Source: Minisyncoccota bacterium
GTDB lineage: Bacteria; Patescibacteriota; Minisyncoccia; UBA6257; JAGOQP01
Length of the DNA stretch: 64,000 nt
Direction: 5' to 3'
NCBI GenBank assembly: GCA_041661795.1
Contig: JBAZTS010000003.1
Span: 3,939 to 67,938 of the forward strand
The position numbers and the translations under genes are program-made. The notes beneath the pieces were generated by a model. That model did no database searches. It worked only from the letters and a program-made list of their open reading frames with translations, and was not told the origin of the DNA. Positions 4,723-36,246 of this stretch are shown here, piece by piece (within the stretch, counting starts at the first letter, position 1; each line of letters starts with the position of its first letter).

Positions 4723-5561
4723 TATTTATTTAGAGTATAAAAATTTTTAAACAGACAAGCCACTAAAATTGGCCCCGTTCCTCCCGGAGTGGGAGTAAAA
4801 AAAGAAAGAAAATCATCGCCATTTTCATTTAAAGATTCAATATCAAAATCTCCTCCCATTTTACCCGTTTTTTCATTTATTCCGTATCCAAAGTCAATAA
4901 CCGCTGATCCTTTTTTGAGCATACTAGTTTTAACCAATCCTGCTTTTCCTGTTCCCAGGACAACTAGATCGGCGTTTTTTAAAGAATCTAAATTACATCC
5001 TTCTGACATGGAGCAAACTTCAGGAACTTCTTCTAAAAACCAATTAGTGACCGGGCGACCAACTAAAAACCCCTGCCCTAAAACCGCTACCTCTCTAAAA
5101 GAATTTCTTTTTAAGTTTAAACTTTTTAACACCTCATCTATAACCGCAACCGTAGGAGGTAAAACAATAGATCTGTTGTGATAAAAAGCCCCAACAGCTC
5201 TTTCTGACATCGCCTCTATGTCTTTTTGAGAAGGAATAACATTGATCGCATAGAAGGGGTTTAGAGTATTAGGAAGAGGAAGTTGTAAAATAGCTCCCCC
5301 GCATTGGCTGGACAAAACCACCTGTCTTATTTTTTCCCTTAAATCATCGTTGGAAATATTTTCATCGTATTGATACAAACGAAAATCCACCCCAAGCTCT
5401 TTGGCTATTTTTTCTTTTTGAGCGATAAAACTGACGGAAGCCGGATCTTTTCCAACCAAAAACACCGCCAAAAATTTTTTGGGTACTGTTTTTGTTTTAA
5501 GCTCGTCTAAAATATTTTTAGCTATTTGTTTTCCATCTATTTTAATCATATTTTTTGACAA
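4722..5561 (-). CDS. folD: Bifunctional methylene-THF dehydrogenase/cyclohydrolase FolD
   Basis: LVGKDPAS, ILQLPLP, DLVVLGTGKAGLV and TPTPGGTGPI motifs. Confidence 0.85.
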   Translation of the reverse strand: MSKNMIKIDGKQIAKNILDELKTKTVPKKFLAVFLVGKDPASVSFIAQKEKIAKELGVDFRLYQYDENISNDDLREKIRQVVLSSQCGGAILQLPLPNTLNPFYAINVIPSQKDIEAMSERAVGAFYHNRSIVLPPTVAVIDEVLKSLNLKRNSFREVAVLGQGFLVGRPVTNWFLEEVPEVCSMSEGCNLDSLKNADLVVLGTGKAGLVKTSMLKKGSAVIDFGYGINEKTGKMGGDFDIESLNENGDDFLSFFTPTPGGTGPILVACLFKNFYTLNK

Positions 5562-6792
5562 CCAAAATATTGTGTAATTCTTTAGCTAATTTCTTCATAT
5601 CTTTTTCTTTCATTCCTCTTGAGGTAACTGCATAAGTTCCGATTCGTATGGCTGATGGCTTAAAGGGAGAGGTGTCTCCAAAAATTGTGTTGCGGTTGGC
5701 TAAAATTCCATTTTTTTCCAGCATTTTTTCCGCCTCAAACCCGTTTATACCTAAACCAGATACATCTATCAGGAACATGTGACAATCAGTTCCTCCACCA
5801 ACTATATCCCAGCCCAAGGCTGGTCCGCCTCGGGCGGAAAACCCTAATTTTTTCATTTCATCACAAAGAGTTTTAGCGTTTTTTACAACTTGCTTATAGT
5901 AATTTTTGTTTTTCGTCGTAAGCAAAAGTCCATGGGCAATGGCGGCAATTGTGTTGTTATGAGGTCCGCCTTGGAGACCGGGGAATATCGCTTTATCAAC
6001 TAATATTGGTAAATCAATATTTTCTTTTTTTATATAAATTAAAGCTGCTCTCGGACCAAAAAGTGATTTATGAGTTGTAGTCATAACAAAATCAGAATAT
6101 TTAAAAGGAGACGGGTAAAATCCGGCTGAAATTAATCCGGCATAGTGAGAAATATCAGCCAGATGATAAGCCCCTACTTTTTTGGCAATTTCTCCTATCT
6201 TTTTGAAGTTTATTTTTTTAGGATAGGCCGAGGCCCCAGAGACAATAATTTTGGGCTTATGTTTTTTTGCTAATTTTTCTAATTCTTTATAATCAATGTC
6301 ATAATTTTTATCAACGCCGTAATGAACAACGTTAAAAAGTTTTCCAGTAAAACTAACTTTGGAACCATGAGAAAGGTGTCCTCCGGCGGTCAAATCCATA
6401 GAAAGGATTGTTTCGCCTGGTTTTAGAACAGAAAGATAAATAGCCAAGTTAGCAATAGCTCCCGAATAGGCCTGGACATTCACATGCCATTTGTTTTTAT
6501 CTAATTTAAATACCTTTAAGGCCCTATCTTTAGCCAACTCTTCTATTTTGTCATAGTAAACATTCCCAGGATAATATCTTTTTCCGGAATATCCTTCCGA
6601 GTATTTATTGGTCAATTCCGACCCAAGCAACTCCAAAACACCTTGGGGAGCCAAATTTTCTGAAGCAATTAAATCAATGTCTTCTTTTTGTCTTTTTACT
6701 TCCTTGTCAGCTAGGTCAAAAAGAGTTTTGTCTGTCTTTTTTAACTTTTTAAGCATTAAACAATAATAATCCAAAAAGACCGCTTTGAGCAA
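5542..6792 (-). CDS. glyA: Serine hydroxymethyltransferase
   Basis: PLP-lysine region TTTHKSLFGPRAAL, conserved N-terminal SENLAP. Adjacent to folD (one-carbon unit pair). Confidence 0.9.
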   Translation of the reverse strand: MLKAVFLDYYCLMLKKLKKTDKTLFDLADKEVKRQKEDIDLIASENLAPQGVLELLGSELTNKYSEGYSGKRYYPGNVYYDKIEELAKDRALKVFKLDKNKWHVNVQAYSGAIANLAIYLSVLKPGETILSMDLTAGGHLSHGSKVSFTGKLFNVVHYGVDKNYDIDYKELEKLAKKHKPKIIVSGASAYPKKINFKKIGEIAKKVGAYHLADISHYAGLISAGFYPSPFKYSDFVMTTTHKSLFGPRAALIYIKKENIDLPILVDKAIFPGLQGGPHNNTIAAIAHGLLLTTKNKNYYKQVVKNAKTLCDEMKKLGFSARGGPALGWDIVGGGTDCHMFLIDVSGLGINGFEAEKMLEKNGILANRNTIFGDTSPFKPSAIRIGTYAVTSRGMKEKDMKKLAKELHNILVVKKYD

Positions 6793-22090: not shown

Positions 22091-22145
22091 GTTATAAGCA
22101 ATGGAATTGAAATTAAAGTCGGGTATTTTCCAAACAAAAATTTAG

Positions 22146-22226
22146 TGGGCAGGGAGGGACTTGAACCCTCAAACCTTGCGGCACTAGCTCCTAAAGCTAG
22201 CGTGTTTACCATTTCACCACCTGCCC
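22146..22226 (-). tRNA. tRNA-Leu (anticodon UAG)
   Basis: Cloverleaf folds on the minus strand: acceptor GGGCAGG/CCTGCCC, anticodon stem CTAGC/GCTAG with loop TTTAGGA, long variable arm, T-arm GAGGG-TTCAAGT-CCCTC. CCA is not encoded. Confidence 0.85.
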
Positions 22227-22335: not shown

Positions 22336-22490
22336 ATAGGGTAGAACTTATCAAACAACTTTCTCGCCTTTGGAAAAGGCGTGGGATTTACCCCCACACC
22401 AATTCTATTGGTGTGGGGGTTTATAGGGTGCTTTAAATGCAGTTAACAACAACTATCCCCGATTCTAATCGGGGAGGAAGGAAGTGGAAG

Positions 22491-23525
22491 ATGTCGACTT
22501 TGTTGTCCACACTGTTATTTGGTCTGGCTGGAGTGGCATTCCTGCTGTTTGTGGGAATCGCCATCTTCGTCAACGGCTGGAGAAAAGTTCCACCGTATCC
22601 GTTCATGGTCGCGAGGAAGAAGTTTAACCGCTTTATCGAGACGATGACGAACGATACAACAACAGGAGGATCAACTACGCCACGTTTCATTCTGAAGCCA
22701 GGAGGAGACCAGTTGTTTATCCTCTATCCGTGGTTCCAGAGTGGTGTGGTGGTGGATTGCTCTGACAAGAACTTCGACGGATCAGTGGACGGAGTCAGGG
22801 CTCTCAAGAAGACCGCAGAGGGAAAGTATGAGGTTGGATTCGATCTCTCCATTCCCTACGAGATCACGGTCTTCATCGACTCCAAGCGATTCGACAAGTT
22901 CGTCGAAGCATGTGGAGGCATCGAAGGGGACAATGTGACTGATGGACATTTTAAGAAGGTCGAGAAGATCCTCAACGGAATCATCACCGAACAGATGGTT
23001 TCCATCGCCGCGTCCATGAAGTCCACCACTCCAAAACCGGACGGGACAACAGACGAGGGAGTGATCTGGGAGGATTTCTACAAGCGCATCGCTGATATCG
23101 CCGACCAACTCATCCGACAGATCGCAGCCGCTGAGGCGGAAGGCGGCCTTGTGCACGACAGCGAAATCCAGAGCGTCCGGAGTGGCAAGGGGAAACTCCC
23201 GTTGAAGCGACTTGGCATCAAGATCAAGCGCTTCAATTTACAAGAACCCAAGCTTCCCAAGAGCATTTCAGACGCAATAGCAAAGAGGGAAGCCGAGGAG
23301 CGAGAGAAGGACGCGGAGAAGACAGAAATGGACGGAGTGATAGACCGAATCAACGACGCCAAGACAAAGACCGGTCTCTCGCCCGAACGCGCTATGGATC
23401 TTGTTCAGAGTGAGCGTGGCAAGGCACGGCGCATCGTTCACACCATCGATCAACAAGGAAAATCAAGTGGGAGTGGGTCAACTCCCGTCATTGTGATTCA
23501 AGAAACAACCGGAAAGGGGGAGTAA
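22491..23525 (+). CDS. SPFH/band-7 (flotillin-like) membrane protein
   Basis: Strong SD GGAGGAAGG before the ATG at 22491. N-terminal TM, SPFH-like core (ILKPGGDQLFILYPWFQSGVVVDCSD ... YEVGFDLSIPYEI), then a Glu/Ala-rich coiled-coil tail (AKREAEEREKDAEK). Confidence 0.5.
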   Translation: MSTLLSTLLFGLAGVAFLLFVGIAIFVNGWRKVPPYPFMVARKKFNRFIETMTNDTTTGGSTTPRFILKPGGDQLFILYPWFQSGVVVDCSDKNFDGSVDGVRALKKTAEGKYEVGFDLSIPYEITVFIDSKRFDKFVEACGGIEGDNVTDGHFKKVEKILNGIITEQMVSIAASMKSTTPKPDGTTDEGVIWEDFYKRIADIADQLIRQIAAAEAEGGLVHDSEIQSVRSGKGKLPLKRLGIKIKRFNLQEPKLPKSISDAIAKREAEEREKDAEKTEMDGVIDRINDAKTKTGLSPERAMDLVQSERGKARRIVHTIDQQGKSSGSGSTPVIVIQETTGKGE

Positions 23526-23526
23526 C

Positions 23527-24003
23527 ATGCCAAACAAGGACTCTCTCGAGAAAGCGTCTCCTCCTTGGACACCAAGAGCCAGAGGATGTTTTCTTTTCAT
23601 TTTCTTGTTTCTGACTGTCGTTGCCATCGCCGTCGTCTCATTCTGGCCCGAAGGCAACGGCGCCAAGACCGTCGAGGCGGTCAGGCAGATCCCAGTGGTC
23701 GCGGAGATCAGTCTGGGACAAACTAAACAAGTCGCAATCCAGCCTGGACACGTAGTAGCAGTTCGCTTCGTTCTCAACCCCGGCGAACCGCCCGGTGAGT
23801 GGGGTTACCGATGGCTTGAGAGAGAGGAAGGGTTGTGCGCAAGTGTGACCCTTTCCTCGGGTTTGGTGCCCCCATTTGTGGATTGCGCCAAGCCCATCAC
23901 CATCGTGCCCCTACCCAAAATCAGGACGACCACCCAAATGATCGTCCACAACACCAGTGAGAAAACAGCCAAACTGGAGTTCTTCCTGACAAGGCCGATT
24001 TAG
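23527..24003 (+). CDS. Small membrane-anchored protein, possible NfeD-like partner of the SPFH protein
   Basis: Single TM (CFLFIFLFLTVVAIAVVSFW) and a beta-rich soluble domain. Coupled to the upstream gene with a 1-bp gap. High GC. Confidence 0.35.
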   Translation: MPNKDSLEKASPPWTPRARGCFLFIFLFLTVVAIAVVSFWPEGNGAKTVEAVRQIPVVAEISLGQTKQVAIQPGHVVAVRFVLNPGEPPGEWGYRWLEREEGLCASVTLSSGLVPPFVDCAKPITIVPLPKIRTTTQMIVHNTSEKTAKLEFFLTRPI

Positions 24004-31194: not shown

Positions 31195-32328
31195 ATGAAG
31201 ATAAAACCATCAGAAGATTCAAAAAAGAGTAATCCTCTTTTTTATTTATTAAAAAATAACCCAAACTTATTAACGCCGCCAAAGGAAGGAGACACCTTTG
31301 ATGCTGAGCTACTATATAAGGACGAACGCAGAGCCTATTTTGATTTAGAAGGAAAAAGCACTGGAATCGTCTTTGGATTAGAGTTTATTAATGCAAAAGA
31401 CATAATAAAAGGATTGGAAATCGGTCAAAAAACGACTATTACGATTACCAATCCGGAAAATAATGACGGAGAAACAGAAATTTCTTTAGTTAAAGCCCTT
31501 TGGCAACAGAACTGGCAGGAAATAAAGAGGTCTAAAGACGCGTCAGAACCAGTGGTGGTTAAAATATTAGGAGCTAATAGTGGTGGACTGATGGCCGAGC
31601 TTTATGGAATTAAGGCGTTCGTCCCAGTTTCTCAGCTTTCGGCCCAAAATTATCCTCACGTTGAAGATGGTGATAAAAATAAAATCTTAGACGAACTAAA
31701 AAAATTCATAGGAAAAGATATGGAAGTAAAGGTATTGGATTTTAACCCTAAGGCCGATAAATTAATACTTTCAGAAAAAGAACTAACTGGAGAAGGAGTT
31801 AAAAAATCGCTGGAAAATTATAAAATTGGAGATACTGTTGATATTATAGTTTCTGGGGTGGCTGATTTTGGAGTTTTTGTTAAATTTGCCGACGATCTAA
31901 ATATTGAGGGTCTAGTTCACATATCCGAGATAGACCATAAACTCATAGATTCACCAAAGGAAATTGTTAAGGTTAACGATCTACTTAAAGCTAAAATAAT
32001 AGAAATTAAAGACGGCAAGGTCTCTTTGTCCTTCAAGGCCTTAAAACCAAATCCTTGGGATAAGGCGTTGGAATTTTTCAAAGAAGAACAAGAAGTCAAA
32101 GGAACCGTAACAAAGTTTAATCCTTTTGGAGCTTTAATTTTTTTGGGAAACGACTTACAAGGATTAATTCACATCTCCGAATTTTCCGCCCAAGGCGGAT
32201 CCGCCTCTGGCGGAGAAAGTAATATGGAAAAAATGAAAGAGACGATTGAGGTTGGAAAAGAGTACACATTTGTTGTCTCACAATTAAAACCTGACGAGAA
32301 AAGAATTATTCTAAAACTCAAAAAATAA
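31195..32328 (+). CDS. rpsA: S1-domain RNA-binding protein, short ribosomal protein S1 homologue
   Basis: At least three S1 repeats, for example GLVHISEIDHKLIDSPKEIVKVNDLLKAKIIEI and GLIHISEFSA...VGKEYTFVVSQL. Contains an in-frame GGSASGG insertion that matches a palindromic element. Confidence 0.6.
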   Translation: MKIKPSEDSKKSNPLFYLLKNNPNLLTPPKEGDTFDAELLYKDERRAYFDLEGKSTGIVFGLEFINAKDIIKGLEIGQKTTITITNPENNDGETEISLVKALWQQNWQEIKRSKDASEPVVVKILGANSGGLMAELYGIKAFVPVSQLSAQNYPHVEDGDKNKILDELKKFIGKDMEVKVLDFNPKADKLILSEKELTGEGVKKSLENYKIGDTVDIIVSGVADFGVFVKFADDLNIEGLVHISEIDHKLIDSPKEIVKVNDLLKAKIIEIKDGKVSLSFKALKPNPWDKALEFFKEEQEVKGTVTKFNPFGALIFLGNDLQGLIHISEFSAQGGSASGGESNMEKMKETIEVGKEYTFVVSQLKPDEKRIILKLKK

Positions 32329-32466: not shown

Positions 32467-34320
32467 ATGAAAATCAACAAACCGTCAAATATTTTAAAAA
32501 ATATATTAGTTATCATCCTTGTGATCTTTTCCGTCCTTCTTTTTTTCTCGGCTTTTTATTCTCAGGAAGAAGAGACACAAAGCATAACTTTAAATGATTT
32601 AGTTACTCAAATTAACGGCGGCGGTATAACAAAAATTACCGTTCAAGGAGAGAGTATTTTTGTTGATTTGGTAAGTGGAGAAAAAGCCATAGCCAGAAAA
32701 GAAATGGAGTCGGGTTTATCAGAAACACTAAAAAACCTGGGAGTTGATCCACAAAAAATGTCCACCATCCCATTGGAGATAAAAGATGAGTCGGGTTTTA
32801 AATTGTGGGCCGGTGTTCTCTTACCAACCTTGATTCCAATAATAGTAATTGGCCTATTCTTTTGGTGGACTTTCAGGCAAGCAAAATCAGGGGCTTCACA
32901 GGCATTTAATTTTGGAAAATCAAACCTAAAGCTTTTTTCTCCTTTTAAAGACAGGATTACATTTGCCGATGTGGCTGGCCTCCAAGAATCAAAACAAGAA
33001 TTAATGGAGGTTGTTGATTTTCTAAAAAATCCAAAAAAATATCTGGATTTGGGAGCGGTTATTCCAAGAGGCGTTCTGCTTTTAGGAATGCCAGGAACCG
33101 GAAAGACGCTTTTGGCCAGAGCCGTAGCCGGAGAAGCTGAAGTCCCCTTCTTTCATATCAGCGCCTCTGAATTTGTTGAAATGTTTGTCGGCGTAGGAGC
33201 ATCAAGAACCCGTGACGCTTTTTCAACTGCCAAAAAAGCGGCTCCTTCTATATTATTCATAGATGAAATAGACGCCATCGGAAGAGAACGTGGAGCGGGC
33301 TTAGGAGGAGGACATGACGAAAGAGAGCAAACTTTAAATCAAATACTAGTTGAAATGGATGGATTTGAAAAAGAAAATCAAGTAATAGTACTTGCCGCTA
33401 CCAATAGACCGGACATTTTAGACCCAGCCCTTTTAAGACCGGGGCGTTTTGACAGAAGGGTGATTTTAGATCTTCCCGATTTAAACGACAGAGAACAAAT
33501 ACTTAAAATACACTCAAGAAATAAGGCCTTTTCTAAAGATGTTGATTTGAGAAAAATAGCCACAAGAACTCCGGGTTTTTCGGGAGCGGACCTGGCCAAT
33601 TTAATGAATGAAGGAGCAATACTGGCCGCTAGAAAAAATAAAAAACAAACAGAACAGGAAGATTTATATGAATCCATAGAAAAAGTTTTATTGGGTCCAG
33701 AAAGAAAATCGAGAGTTCTTAATAAAAAAGAAAGAGATATTACCGCCTATCATGAAGCTGGGCATGCTTTGGTCTCGGCCTGTTTAAAAGATGCTGACCC
33801 GGTTCATAAGGTTTCCATAATCGCTCGTGGGCAAGCCGGCGGATACACGTTAAAACTTCCTTTAGAAGACATGCATCTTAAAACCAGAAGACAATTTGTA
33901 GCTGATCTGGCTACTATGTTTGGAGGATACGCCACGGAAAAAATGGTTTTTGGAGACATTAGCACCGGAGCATCCAACGATCTTTCGGTTGCCTCTGATA
34001 TGGCCAGAAAATTGGTGACTAAGTATGGAATGAGTGAAAAATTTGGTCCGATAACTTTTGGGAAAACACAAGAATTGGTTTTTTTGGGAAAAGAAATTTC
34101 AACGGAAAAAAATTATTCGGAAGCTACCGCGCTTGAAATAGACAAAGAAGTGGGGAAATTTATAGAAACGGCCTATTCCTTGGCTAAAAAGATTATCAAA
34201 GACAAAAGAAAGGTTTTAGACATAATAGCCAAAACTCTTATGGATAAAGAAACGATAGAGAAAGATGCGTTTGATGAAATTATAAGAAAATCAAAGATAA
34301 AAAAAATAGAAATAAAATAA
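32467..34320 (+). CDS. ftsH: ATP-dependent zinc metalloprotease FtsH
   Basis: AAA Walker [19 protein letters not shown], second region of homology, and zinc site HEAGHAL. Confidence 0.95.
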
Positions 34321-34332
34321 TCAATTCAACCA

Positions 34333-34367
34333 AAAATGACCCAAGATAAAAATGGGTCATTTTTTTA
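34333..34367 (+). terminator. Rho-independent terminator
   Basis: AAAATGACCCAAGATAAAAATGGGTCATTTTTTT. Confidence 0.75.
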
Positions 34368-34418
34368 TGAAACATTGAAACAATTTTTTTATTGATATAG
34401 AATTTGATAATTAAAATC

Positions 34419-34490
34419 GCGCCTGTAGCTCAGTGGTAGAGCGCTACTCTTATAAAGTAGATGTCGTAGGTTCGATCCCTACCAGGCGCA
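34419..34490 (+). tRNA. tRNA-Ile with anticodon UAU (decodes AUA)
   Basis: 72-nt cloverleaf: acceptor GCGCCTG/CAGGCGC, D-arm GCTC-AGTGGTA-GAGC, perfect anticodon stem CTACT/AGTAG with loop CTTATAA (U33, anticodon TAT, A37), T-arm GTAGG-TTCGATC-CCTAC. Confidence 0.7.
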
Positions 34491-34492
34491 CT

Positions 34493-35110
34493 ATGGATTG
34501 GCTCAATTCATTTATAGATCAATACTCCAATTTTGCTTATCTAATAGTATTCTTGGCAATAATAATCGAAGGAGACGTTTCTCTTCTTTTATTCGGAGCT
34601 TTAAGCAAAGAGCACTACGTCAAATTTTGGGAGGTTTATGTTATAGCCATAGTAGCCGCCGCTATCCACGATATTATATTTTGGAACATCGGCGATCGAA
34701 TCGCTAAATCCAACAGAACAAAATATTTATTTTTTGATTTTATAAAAGCCAAAGCTTTTTTAGAAAGAATGAGGCCCTTGGCTGGAATTTTTATATTTCT
34801 CTCTAAGTTTGCTTGGAATCTTAACAGGGTGGTTCTTGTTTGTGTTGGCTATATAAGGATAGATTTTAAAACATTTGTCAAGTACTCAATACCGGTGGCC
34901 ATTCTTTGGCCGTTAATATTTCTTTCTGTGGGGTATGTATTCGCCGACCAAACTCAGATATTTAAACAGAAGATTGAGATAGCCGGATTATTTATAATTG
35001 GCATTCTTGTTTTGTTGGTTGTGTTTGAATTGAAATTAAAAACAATTTTTAAAAAATATTTTTACGAAGATTCTGGTGTTGAAAAAAATGGCGGTTCTGA
35101 TGTAAAGTAA
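34493..35110 (+). CDS. DedA/VTT-domain family membrane protein
   Basis: The ORF-track start overlaps the tRNA, so the start is moved to the Met at 34493. AYLIVFLAIIIEGDVSLLLFGAL motif and multiple TM helices. Confidence 0.55.
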   Translation: MDWLNSFIDQYSNFAYLIVFLAIIIEGDVSLLLFGALSKEHYVKFWEVYVIAIVAAAIHDIIFWNIGDRIAKSNRTKYLFFDFIKAKAFLERMRPLAGIFIFLSKFAWNLNRVVLVCVGYIRIDFKTFVKYSIPVAILWPLIFLSVGYVFADQTQIFKQKIEIAGLFIIGILVLLVVFELKLKTIFKKYFYEDSGVEKNGGSDVK

Positions 35111-35122
35111 TACTGATTATAT

Positions 35123-35200
35123 GCACTCTTAGCTCAGTTGGCCCTAAAAATTTTATTGTAGTAAAATTTAACGGGTAAATTAGAGCGCTAGTTTATTCCC
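35123..35200 (+). pseudogene. tRNA-like fragment(s): copy of the tRNA-Val 5' end (GCACTCTTAGCTCAGTTGG) with insertion and a degenerate D/anticodon region, bracketed by a 10-bp inverted repeat
   Basis: CTGATTATAT (35113-35122) pairs with ATATAATCAG (35203-35212). Internal sequence matches the tRNA D-arm consensus but cannot form a cloverleaf. Confidence 0.4.
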
Positions 35201-35247
35201 GATTTGTTTCTGATATAATCAGAATTACAAATCGCAATCCTGCTTAT

Positions 35248-35301
35248 GGTGGGCGCATAGCTCAGTTGATTAGAGCGTCCGCCTCATTCACCCCGTTAGA
35301 T
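35248..35301 (+). pseudogene. Truncated tRNA 5' half (Met/Ile-CAU-like, ends at anticodon CAT), forming the left arm of an inverted repeat around tRNA-Val
   Basis: GGGCGCATAGCTCAGTTGATTAGAGCGTCCGCCTCAT has no 3' half. The outer 10-mer GGTGGGCGCA and inner CCCCGTTAGAT are mirrored at 35429-35438 and 35387-35397. Confidence 0.5.
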
Positions 35302-35307
35302 TTATGA

Positions 35308-35379
35308 GGGCACTTAGCTCAGTGGTAGAGCGACTCGTTTACACCGAGTAGGTCGGGGGTTCAATCCCTCCAGTGCCCA
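35308..35379 (+). tRNA. tRNA-Val (anticodon UAC)
   Basis: 72-nt cloverleaf: acceptor GGGCACT/AGTGCCC, anticodon stem ACTCG/CGAGT with loop TTTACAC, T-arm GGGGG-TTCAATC-CCTCC. Confidence 0.85.
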
Positions 35380-35453
35380 CAAAAAAATCTAACGGGGCAA
35401 GCGCAAAAACCCCATGTTTGAGCCCTGGTGCGCCCACCATGCGCGGGACATCG

Positions 35454-35508
35454 AGGAGGTCATAGGTTTCCGCCAGAGGCGGATCCGCCTCTGGCGGACA
35501 ATCCTCCA
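35454..35508. repeat. Long hairpin with a perfect 28-bp GC-rich palindrome centred on GGATCC
   Basis: CCGCCAGAGGCGGATCCGCCTCTGGCGG (35470-35497), flanked by GAGGAGG...CCTCC. The 20-mer GGCGGATCCGCCTCTGGCGG is identical to 32194-32213 inside rpsA. Confidence 0.8.
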
Positions 35509-35556
35509 GCACCCACTAAATAACAACTTTTTAGTGATATTAAAAAAAGCCAGTAT

Positions 35557-35582
35557 TTAAGCCGAAAGTGAGTTTCGGCTTA
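35557..35582. repeat. Perfect 11-bp-stem hairpin TTAAGCCGAAA-GTGAG-TTTCGGCTTAA
   Basis: Seen directly. Nearby T-runs on both strands. Possible terminator or structured element. Confidence 0.4.
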
Positions 35583-35636
35583 AAACCTAGCTTTTTTGAA
35601 AATTACCCATTTTCACCCCCAAAATATGGTTTAAAA

Positions 35637-35776
35637 TGTTTCACGTGAAACAATTTTTTTATTTTAAAGTGGCAAAGATGTGGCAATTCCATTTCCACTT
35701 GGTTTCCACTTTACCACCACACTAATAGTATTAGTGTGGTGGTTTATTTCCACTTTACAATGTTTCACGTGAAACA
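35637..35776. promoter_or_regulatory. Two copies of the perfect 16-bp palindrome TGTTTCACGTGAAACA flanking a TTTCCACTT repeat cluster and a 29-bp hairpin
   Basis: Palindromes at 35637-35652 and 35761-35776. TTTCCACTT at 35693-35701, 35703-35711 and 35747-35755. Hairpin CCACCACACTAATAGTATTAGTGTGGTGG at 35714-35742. TATAAT at 35794-35799 precedes the yraN ATG. Confidence 0.6.
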
Positions 35777-35805
35777 ATTTGTATCATTTTTGGTATAATA
35801 AAGGC

Positions 35806-36246
35806 ATGAATTACAATAAATTAGTTGGATCCACAGGTGAAGGCGTCGCCTGTGGATATCTTATGGAAAAGGGGTATAAAATATTATTTAGGAATTACGC
35901 TACTAAGTTTGGGGAGCTTGATATAATAACTAAATCACCAGATAAAACCTTAGTATTTTGCGAAGTAAAGTCGTTACTTTTAAAGCGGAAAGGAAGTGGC
36001 AATAAAGTGGAAAGTTATCCACAACAAAGTGGCAATAAAGTGGAAAACCTGTGGCAAACCAATTATACACCGGAGGACAATATGTCTGCGTCTAAGATAA
36101 AGAAGTTTAAAAAGATCGCCCAGTGGTACGCAAATCAGAATAATAACCTTATAGACGAATCAGTGGGTTACAGGTTGGACTTAATAGCTGTGGAATTATC
36201 AGATGTAGATGCTCCCATTATAAGACATTATGAGAATATAAGTTAG
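35806..36246 (+). CDS. yraN: YraN/UPF0102 family putative endonuclease with an internal repeat-encoded insertion
   Basis: GEGVACGYLMEKGYKILFRNYATKFGELDIIT...LVFCEVKS matches the YraN core. The insertion GSGNKVESYPQQSGNKVENL is encoded by two copies of AGTGGCAATAAAGTGGAAA around a consensus TTATCCACA. Confidence 0.6.
   Translation: MNYNKLVGSTGEGVACGYLMEKGYKILFRNYATKFGELDIITKSPDKTLVFCEVKSLLLKRKGSGNKVESYPQQSGNKVENLWQTNYTPEDNMSASKIKKFKKIAQWYANQNNNLIDESVGYRLDLIAVELSDVDAPIIRHYENIS

Follow-up and report, generated by a model that had tools for sequence, protein, structure and literature searches.

The 64,000-nt stretch of DNA analysed here (hereafter the window) is part of a metagenome contig from an ultrasmall bacterium of the Patescibacteria (Paceibacterota/Parcubacteria-type) with a G+C content of 35%, and this study concerns a nest of tRNA genes that occupies the 668-nt intergenic region between a gene for a DedA-like membrane protein and yraN. 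The genes upstream of the nest are gyrA, the gene of an S1 protein, ftsH, tRNA-Ile(UAU) and the DedA-like gene, and those downstream are yraN, yebC, ruvC, a class A penicillin-binding protein gene, dnaN and dnaA. The nest comprises three layers: an intact tRNA-Val lies within a split tRNA, which lies within a decayed tRNA-Val. Along the DNA, an old Val 5′ piece is followed by a left module, the 5′ half of the middle tRNA, a stem and the intact tRNA-Val, and then by a stem, the 3′ half of the middle tRNA, a short trailer and an old Val 3′ piece. We refer to the innermost tRNA with its flanking stems as the A cassette, and to the middle tRNA with its left and right modules as the B cassette. The features are as follows.

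35107-35122, + strand: left arm, GTAATACTGATTATAT, of an inverted repeat; it overlaps the stop codon of the DedA-like gene, and its partner (35213-35228) is part of the B-module hairpin
35123-35195, + strand: 5′ part of the outermost, decayed tRNA-Val-like gene, with acceptor strand, D arm and anticodon strand, ending ..TTTA in the loop
35142-35175, + strand: hairpin in the D loop of this 5′ part, which is interrupted over 35142-35179, CCCTAAAAATTT..AAATTTAACGGG (direct match 92%, inverted match 92%)
35196-35250, + strand: left module of the B cassette, consisting of TTCCCGATTTGT, a variable hairpin (35208-35224, with TATAAT in its loop), the 22-mer TTACAAATCGCAATCCTGCTTA (35225-35246) and a leader
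35251-35286, + strand: 5′ half of the middle tRNA, with acceptor strand GGGCGCA, D arm with A19, anticodon strand TCCGC and loop CTCA(T)
35287-35307, + strand: left flank of the A cassette, with TTCA, the 13-nt stem arm CCCCGTTAGATTT (35291-35303) and the spacer ATGA
35308-35379, + strand: intact inner tRNA-Val(UAC)
35380-35401, + strand: right flank of the A cassette, with a spacer, the 13-nt stem arm AAATCTAACGGGG (35385-35397) and CAAG (35398-35401)
35398-35436, + strand: 3′ half of the middle tRNA, with loop CAA, stem GCGCA, variable loop AAAACC, T arm CCATG TTTGAGC CCTGG, acceptor strand TGCGCCC and discriminator A
35436-35448, + strand: right module of the B cassette, the trailer ACCATGCGCGGGA, which pairs with the leader at 35238-35250 and lengthens the acceptor helix by 13 pairs
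35449-35516, + strand: 3′ part of the outermost, decayed tRNA-Val, CATCGAGG AGGTC ATAGG TT .. CAATCC TCC AGCACCC AC
35469-35498, + strand: 30-nt double hairpin, TCCGCCAGAGGCGGA + TCCGCCTCTGGCGGA, which splits the outermost T loop between T55 and C56

Only the innermost of these nested tRNAs, tRNA-Val(UAC), is intact. It is 72 nt long, has the D loop AGTGGTA and no encoded CCA, and is presumed to be a functional gene. A previous interpretation made from the letters of the DNA (the sequence-only reading) had already placed it here, and both ARAGORN and Rfam (70.7 bits) confirmed it. It is 88-89% identical to the inner tRNA-Val genes of two related contigs, L099 (88%) and L123. The arms that enclose it, CCCCGTTAGATTT and AAATCTAACGGGG, form a perfect inverted pair of 13-mers (100%), of which 11 nt had been recognized before.

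The middle tRNA is split by the A cassette. Once 111 nt (35287/8-35397/8) are removed, the remainder forms a cloverleaf and ARAGORN, at default threshold, recognizes it as Met(CAU) with the junction at 35287|35399 and as Val(CAC) with the junction at 35286|35398. The left arm had been described as the 5′ half of a Met/Ile-CAU-like tRNA; it is a tRNA 5′ half (35251-35287), but the label is uncertain. The anticodon is CAU or CAC depending on the placement of the junction. The right arm had been taken for a diverged reverse complement of the left one, a description that we abandoned, as 97% of shuffles align equally well between the mirrored ends. It is instead the 3′ half of the same tRNA, because splicing gives a cloverleaf called by ARAGORN, whereas 0/3000 shuffles of the 31 internal bases of the arm produce such a call. 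The CCA that follows this arm is indeed encoded, but it belongs to the leader/trailer helix and is not kept in L099. When ARAGORN was applied to the raw sequence in its intron and pseudogene modes, it found the inner tRNA alone, and the outer one requires explicit deletion of the insert.

The splice-out test gave 48 junction-spanning tRNA calls in the window, 450 in L099 and 296 in L117, a contig with a nest at a tRNA-Ser locus, and none for about 20 isolated tRNAs of bacterial loci. Only isolated tRNAs served as controls because the test misfires on dense phage tRNA arrays, where neighbouring genes form chimaeras. The D arm with A19 is accompanied by U56 in the T loop in all 16 phage tRNAs that have this D arm, so the two halves of the middle tRNA belong together; this A19/U56 type is common in phage contigs, which the search covered. 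The middle tRNA retains a perfect acceptor stem, a perfect D stem and the 19-56 tertiary pair, and two of its stems have one mismatch each.

The outermost layer is the most degraded. Its 5′ part resembles the 5′ end of the inner tRNA-Val in a repeat comparison, and is homologous to L099 3737-3790 and to the 5′ half of the host tRNA in the related contig L134, where a hairpin lies at the same D-loop position. This is the upstream copy of the tRNA-Val 5′ end with an insertion that the sequence-only reading had described. The D-loop hairpin has a right arm similar to the right-hand stem of the A cassette. The inverted repeat around the fragment (35107-35122 / 35213-35228) is likewise real and, at 16 nt and 94% complementarity, longer than the 10 bp claimed. 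The 3′ part, with the 30-nt palindrome in its T loop, had been missed. It has the 17-mer CGAGGAGGTCATAGGTT in common with the tRNA-Val of L014, its 3′ end is an 81% identical direct repeat of the inner tRNA-Val end, and homologous sequence lies at L099 4030-4095 and in the T arm of the L134 host. As read from the sequence, the stems of the outermost 5′ and 3′ fragments no longer pair. Decay therefore grows outward, from an intact inner gene through a middle one with a single mismatch in each of two stems to an outermost one with unpaired stems. The 5′ half of each outer gene is matched by a 3′ half across the insert, and this anatomy, matched tRNA halves nested around an intact gene, is secure. 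A decayed or rearranged tRNA cluster had been another suggestion; the locus does contain tRNA pieces in decay, but these derive from single genes as nested halves and not from a tandem array.

The double hairpin in the outermost T loop (TCCGCCnnnGGCGGA twice) was also observed at 32185-32214, where 28 of its 30 nt recur in frame in the S1 protein gene and encode SAQGGSASGG, and a related copy lies at 5809-5838 inside an open reading frame (ORF) on the - strand (5542-6792). It looks like a dispersed mini-palindrome that may insert in frame, by analogy with the Rickettsia palindromic elements.

We regard the possibility that the nest is an assembly artefact, with reads from several tRNA genes mis-joined or collapsed, as practically negligible. 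One Logan assembly of the same organism does break here, as contig L002 starts at window position 35472, inside the 30-nt palindrome. However, the ENA contig k141_217480 of ERZ27249449 (L001) is identical to the window over the nest region, the flanking protein is found too in NCBI and JGI contigs of about 110.6 kb, and homologous nests were recovered independently from other species (24 contigs of the L099 species, L121, L123 and L134). Nests of this kind are likely to break short-read assemblies and hence to be under-reported.

The related contigs L119, L121, L123, L134, L135 and L136 were reached through further homologues of the flanking protein. Nests follow the DedA-like gene in the window, L099, L121, L123 and L134, and a plain tRNA-Val occupies the same site in six or seven relatives (L004/L036, L014, L038, L119, L135 and L136). 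The plain genes of L004, L014, L036 and L038 are tRNA-Val(UAC) genes of 74-77 nt directly 3′ of the DedA-like gene. The sequence-only reading had suggested comparing this locus across related genomes, where an ordinary tRNA array would point to assembly collapse. Some relatives do show an ordinary single tRNA-Val, but four others carry the same nest type in independent assemblies, and for this reason the plain sites are regarded as empty sites rather than as evidence of collapse. Filled and empty sites are interleaved in terms of flanking-protein identity, which is 63, 53, 52 and 51% for the nests and 57, 54, 51 and 50% for the plain sites.

L099, whose flanking protein is 63% identical and which is represented by 24 independent contigs, is the nearest relative detected; its nest occupies this site too, consists of the same three layers and includes the outermost T-loop palindrome. 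Its middle tRNA is nearly identical to the plain tRNA-Val of L004, and a canonical 7-nt anticodon loop for Val cannot be recovered in its outer tRNA by any simple excision. L123 and L134 contain a stem-type (A) cassette within a decayed host, which has three acceptor mismatches in L123. The nesting is reversed in L121, where the 22-mer module and a 74-nt tRNA-Val lie inside a 72-nt-type tRNA-Val, itself inside a stem-type insertion, and where precise removal of B gives a canonical tRNA-Val(UAC). This site thus shows, in different genomes, a plain tRNA-Val, a host that contains A, a host with A inside B and a host with B inside A. Among classifiable hosts, A lies in the 74-75-nt tRNA family and B in the 72-nt family, each in the family of the other.

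Two further observations were made at this site. The plain tRNA-Val of L136 (1971-2045) has an acceptor stem and a T arm of the 72-nt family type (GCGCGC.., GGGGG/CCCTC) together with a D loop of the 74-75-nt family, AGCTGGTTA; judging from its sequence, such a chimera would be the expected product of host-cargo recombination, which would mean that nests are sometimes resolved. L134 2470-2620, after the host 3′ half, contains a second A right stem and CAAGCCGAGAAGG, joined to a T arm and acceptor strand of the 72-nt type that contain two GC hairpins, and is a further fossil layer.

The A cassette of the window is 111-115 nt long and sits in the anticodon loop of a complete split tRNA. The consensus of this type comprises TTCA, a stem of 11-13 bp, a 72-nt tRNA-Val with the D loop AGYGGTA, the matching stem and CAAG, and the A cargo tRNAs are 79-89% identical among themselves. 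The left flank, TTCA followed by the stem sequence yCCCGTTAGAT, recurs in L123 and L134. CAAG, which in the window (35398-35401) overlaps the start of the middle tRNA 3′ half, is common to the A cassettes of L099, L123 and L134. The L099 stem at the equivalent place is wholly different (CCCACCCACCT / AGGTGGGTGGG). An integron attC reading was considered, as GTTAGAT / ATCTAAC fits GTTRRRY / RYYYAAC, and was dropped because the L099 stem does not have the motif.

The B cassette splits the older tRNA-Val, and its cargo in the window is the split middle tRNA. Its consensus comprises TTCCCGATTTGT, a hairpin of variable sequence, the invariant 22-mer, a leader, a tRNA and a trailer ending ..TGYGCGGGA, which in the window ends ..TGCGCGGGA. 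The outer mirrored 10-mers that had been reported are exact and extend to an inverted pair of 20 nt (35238-35257 / 35429-35448, 85% complementary). The 22-mer TTACAAATCGCAATCCTGCTTA is identical before the middle tRNA in the window and in L099, occurs with one mismatch in L121, and the module precedes tRNA-Ser in L105 and L117. The leader/trailer helix is held in L099, L121 and L105 by compensatory changes (ATGGT/ACCAT, AAAGT/ACTTT and ATGGC/GCCAT); between L099 and the window, the 13-bp helix is preserved via two compensatory pairs. The B cargo and plain tRNA-Val genes are 81-97% identical to each other. In four loci the cargo tRNA is preceded, at a distance of 31-32 nt, by TATAAT or TAGAAT; as for a role of the module as promoter, neither motif is present in L121, and no -35 element was found. 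A target rule of the IS200/IS605 type was also discarded, given that the bases 5′ of the insertion vary (TTTA, CTTG, CTCA) and it is the left end that is constant. A metagenome search with a 19-mer from within the 22-mer TTACAAATCGCAATCCTGCTTA gave 14 matches, nine of them in coding DNA and counted as chance, and led to the module at the tRNA-Ser loci L105/L108 and L117; IMG/VR held no exact match to this 19-mer or to the inner tRNA-Val.

Similar nests were identified at tRNA-Ser loci. In L105/L108 and in L117, split tRNA-Ser genes enclose a tRNA-Ser(GGA) that is flanked by the B module, and two tRNA-Ser allele families show the same host/cargo reciprocity as the Val families. Splicing out the insert of L117 restores a canonical tRNA, part of the outermost 3′ half is deleted in this contig, and the mismatches in its A-like stem are G-T, not A-C. 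ORFs of the GIY-YIG family (Pfam PF01541) are present inside the L105 nest and beside the L117 nest. They belong to a subfamily of about 80-100 aa that lies directly 5′ of tRNA-Ser(GGA), in some cases overlapping it, in five different species; the homologues in L127, L129 and L130 represent three other species and other genomic contexts, with an intact tRNA-Ser(GGA) directly 3′. The genes are the following.

L105 2045-2302, - strand: GIY-YIG gene inside the nest
L117 2317-2574, - strand: GIY-YIG gene beside the nest
L127 1501-1812: GIY-YIG gene
L129 1501-1740: GIY-YIG gene
L130 1501-1752: GIY-YIG gene

Upstream of the GIY-YIG genes there is a tRNA-Ser 5′ fragment with one or two GC-rich hairpins (CCGCC nnn GGCGG, CCCCGC nnn GCGGGG). 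A tblastn search found no GIY-YIG homologue anywhere in the window. The contigs that contain most homologues of the subfamily are very short, which fits DNA that is repeated or mobile. A separate observation concerns another relative, L041 (8884-9190 and 9246-9378), where a GIY-YIG gene downstream of ruvC is bracketed by the 22-nt inverted repeat GACCCCGCACCTTTTTAGGA / TCCTAAAAAGGTGCGGGGTTGA; a second inverted repeat of 19 nt with ATGTGCGGGA follows, and a similar pair lies at 380-520.

The conservation of the A stem and of the leader/trailer helix raises the question of a design at the RNA level, in which the nested folds and stems would be a conserved precursor architecture, or the outer tRNA would be matured by excision and ligation. 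In the milder form of this explanation, the outer cloverleaf and the helices of 11-20 bp would guide RNase P, RNase Z or RNase III or stabilize the inner tRNA; in the stronger form, the locus would hold a bacterial protein-dependent tRNA intron or a split tRNA. The unusual structured RNA proposed in the sequence-only reading is retained in this sense as a rival, but it is not the best reading. The folding check proposed there had a positive outcome: the RNA fold of 35240-35445 has z = -5.7, and none of the shuffles folds equally well. Such a design would also account for the retention of the A stem despite a complete change of sequence (CCCCGTTAGATTT in the window, CCCACCCACCT in L099), the compensatory changes in the leader/trailer helix in four species, the G-T rather than A-C mismatches of the A-like stem of L117, the invariance of the 22-mer across Val and Ser loci, and the perfect acceptor and D stems and 19-56 pair of the outer tRNA of the window. 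Nevertheless, we consider it unlikely. The outermost layer is degenerate in the window and partly deleted in L117, the host of L123 has its three acceptor mismatches, and a plain tRNA-Val suffices at the same site in six or seven relatives. Excision has a mixed outcome: it gives a canonical tRNA for the middle layer of the window, for B in L121 and for L117, but not for the anticodon arm of L099, for L123 or for the outermost layer of the window. The junctions have no bulge-helix-bulge motif, and no group I core is found. RNase P and RNase Z leave 5′-phosphate and 3′-OH ends, which RtcB-type ligases do not use, so that these ends would not be a substrate for joining the halves.

A second rival is local decay without mobility. 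The nest would then be a graveyard derived from one ancestor by duplications, template switching at palindromes, hairpin expansion or old integrase events, and would have been inherited vertically, followed by deletion or gene conversion in the lineages with a plain tRNA-Val. The position of every Val nest at one syntenic site, the agreement of the window and L099 in the whole three-layer layout including the T-loop palindrome, the direct repeats formed by the inner tRNA 3′ end and the outermost 3′ fragment (which resemble an att scar), the other small palindromic insertions in the genome and the absence of a mobility gene are all in line with this view. We nonetheless find it unlikely too, as the reversed order and clean, excisable B of L121 are hard to obtain from a single ancestral arrangement, and the B module also surrounds tRNA-Ser at unrelated loci in other lineages. 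Moreover, nests and plain sites are interleaved among relatives at similar distance, and repeated precise loss restoring an intact tRNA is improbable unless copies recombine with each other.

The reading that we favour, with confidence only slightly better than even, is that the nest was built by serial invasion of two rival ORF-less tRNA-replacement cassettes, and that the outer halves are dead genes. We prefer serial insertion because filled and plain sites interleave, the order of the layers varies, the L121 insert can be excised, B recurs at tRNA-Ser and decay grows outward. More tentatively, and with somewhat less than an even chance of being correct, the nests may represent an undescribed class of selfish element in Patescibacteria. 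Its members would be ORF-less, stem-enclosed tRNA cassettes of 110-250 bp whose homing target is the anticodon loop of the resident gene for the same tRNA; they would destroy this gene and become indispensable as its replacement. At least two rival families (A/B, Val/Ser) would repeatedly invade the cargo of each other, and the layers would record the order of invasion.

Under serial cassette invasion, each cassette would consist of a complete tRNA gene in a long stem, inserted into the anticodon loop of the resident tRNA. The insertion would kill the resident gene and at the same time provide its replacement, and the cassette would be retained because its loss would mean the loss of an essential single-copy tRNA. 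The flanking tRNA halves could serve as homology arms that let recombination carry a cassette from one genome to another. DNA uptake might suffice for this, or a site-specific nuclease acting in trans might first make a cut; the idea of a nuclease is suggested by the GIY-YIG genes adjoining the tRNA-Ser versions. The window copy has no nuclease gene and looks non-autonomous or fossil. The inner tRNA would be freed from its stem-rich precursor by RNase P, a 3′ nuclease and CCA addition, possibly with RNase III acting on the long stems, and the outer tRNA halves would be waste after processing.

Several points weigh against serial invasion by cassettes. There is no nuclease, transposase or integrase gene in or adjoining the nest of the window, no target-site duplication is evident at the junctions, and we infer mobility from the distribution of the cassettes only. 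The insertion point is off by one base between the two tRNA types, lying after position 35 in Val (34 if a shared A is shifted) and after 34 in Ser. The middle tRNA of the window is an outlier, only 59-72% identical to either tRNA-Val family, and a comparison with 201 tRNAs gave no clear isotype assignment; for these two reasons, extension of the rule that the cargo replaces the host to the middle layer of the window is not demonstrated. Between the window and L099, about nine pairs of the middle tRNA have changed with compensation and two without, and the 19-56 pair differs as well. From the sequences, such compensation would be unexpected for orthologous pseudogenes; it would require that the insertions were independent or that cargo was exchanged, or else that the outer fold is still under selection. 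The 22-mer and the covarying leader/trailer helix, common to Val and Ser loci, could reflect a function at the RNA level rather than a mobility signal. Finally, the reciprocity of A in B and B in A could be a survival bias, with nests of near-identical genes being deleted by recombination.

If the cassette interpretation is correct, these elements would represent a new route for selfish DNA into an essential gene, in which the whole gene is replaced from within. This route would differ both from splicing, as used by introns and inteins, and from the restoration of a gene end, as practised by tRNA-targeting islands. It would also explain the tRNA halves and hairpins strewn over the tRNA loci of these tiny genomes, provide natural cases of short homology arms driving gene replacement across species, and make the GIY-YIG proteins beside tRNA-Ser candidate tRNA-gene-specific nucleases. 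If instead the RNA-level explanation held, the locus would be the first bacterial protein-dependent tRNA intron or split tRNA, which would be still more surprising. On a practical level, tRNA finders give the innermost gene only, and unannotated split copies can confuse tRNA counts, pseudogene calls and contig assembly.

Other features of the window were also observed. At 35622-35791, the palindrome TGTTTCACGTGAAACA occurs twice (35638 and 35762), bracketing repeated TTTCCAC / GTGGCAA boxes and a perfect hairpin of 15 bp, and in L099 the two palindromes are found again, with repeated boxes of another sequence between them (TTGCCGGAT). This region of the window may be the replication origin, with the minimum of the cumulative GC skew at about 30-32 kb and dnaA-dnaN located 4-6 kb farther downstream. 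An island of two genes (22437-24003) with about 55% G+C in this 35% G+C genome lies beside tRNA-Leu(UAG) (22145-22226, - strand), has a terminator-like hairpin at its end and is likely foreign DNA. The tRNA-Ile at 34419-34491 has the anticodon UAU, a rare way of reading AUA, and is kept beside the locus in L014, L038, L099, L119-L123 and L134-L136. The automatic ORF call of the DedA-like gene overlaps this tRNA, and the true start is probably near 34493.

With regard to known systems, full-text literature searches returned no description of bacterial tRNA genes nested in tRNA genes, and the locus is an unusual, recurrent arrangement that is apparently undescribed in the literature. Genomic islands and prophages that use tRNA genes as integration sites bring along a copy of the 3′ part of the tRNA, by which the gene is made whole again; K. 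P. Williams has reportedly worked on such tRNA and tmRNA integration sites. The nests resemble tRNA-targeting islands in that the anticodon-loop region is targeted, the incoming tRNA sequence keeps the function and displaced fragments remain. They differ in having neither an integrase nor a large island, in carrying a whole tRNA, and in leaving matched halves instead of direct repeats of an end. An integrase target scar, one of the suggestions of the sequence-only reading, is not supported: the neighbours are housekeeping genes with no integrase among them, and an att scar consists of direct repeats of one tRNA end. A 3′-end direct repeat does exist here, but it is accompanied by matched 5′ halves upstream in nested order.

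Reviews list group I introns as the only kind of disruption of bacterial tRNA genes (PMC4033280). Like such an intron, the nest is an anticodon-loop insertion (the insert junctions 35286/35287 and 35195/35196 lie within anticodon loops) that is patchy among relatives and inferred to be mobile. In contrast, the nest insert is 111-253 nt long and mostly tRNA, and it is the carried replacement gene, not splicing, that appears to restore function. Rfam Intron_gpI gave no match at E ≤ 10 in window positions 34000-36000 or at E ≤ 0.01 in L099, L105, L117, L121 and L123, and permissive Rfam scans of the locus and five related loci found only tRNA, with no group I or group II intron, ribozyme, Y RNA-like RNA or tmRNA. 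Group I splicing expects U before the 5′ site and G as the last intron base. The Ser B inserts end ..GCGGGA after a 5′ exon ending in G, the Val B sites fit only with a one-base shift, and at the A sites the exon ends in A/U and the insert in G/C.

The intron-containing, split and permuted tRNAs of archaea such as Nanoarchaeum (PMC4033280, PMC3218864) share with the nests the interruption of loops, sometimes several (D, anticodon and T), the formation of helices by the sequences flanking the interruption, and the occurrence of related inserts in different tRNAs. The differences are the bacterial host, the decay of the outer genes, the whole tRNA held by the insert and the absence of a bulge-helix-bulge, which is defined by two 3-nt bulges separated by a 4-bp helix (PMC4033280). 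Here, an uninterrupted 13-bp helix lies between the A junctions, with an internal loop of 8 nt by 3 nt beside the anticodon stem, and the B junctions are opposed across a 5 x 5 loop.

The GIY-YIG nuclease SegB of phage T4 (PMC2330249) offers a parallel for a nuclease gene beside tRNA genes, as found in L105, L117, L127, L129 and L130, and for inheritance of a tRNA region, which would proceed by recombinational repair. SegB, however, lies between intact tRNAs, none of them split, whereas the nest of the window has no nuclease gene and the Patescibacteria proteins are known from sequence. As in homing cassettes, filled and empty sites coexist (five nests versus six or seven plain tRNA-Val genes); a nuclease gene, another mark of such cassettes, is found in the tRNA-Ser loci of L105, L117, L127, L129 and L130 and not in the window. 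The nests also recall miniature inverted-repeat transposable elements by their terminal inverted repeats, which are a perfect 13 bp in A and only TCCCG/CGGGA in B, but none of the junctions has a target-site duplication, and a scan of the 64-kb window found one copy each of the A and B motifs. The non-intron insertions in rRNA genes of the candidate phyla radiation (PMC11270868) occur in the same phylum and are likewise short, ORF-less inserts at the tips or bases of stem-loops, some of them linked to GIY-YIG genes. They differ in that rRNA tolerates fragmentation and no replacement gene is reported, and the survey makes no mention of tRNA (PMC11270868). Overall, the nest is akin to two known kinds of system, namely insertions into anticodon loops and elements that restore the tRNA they target.

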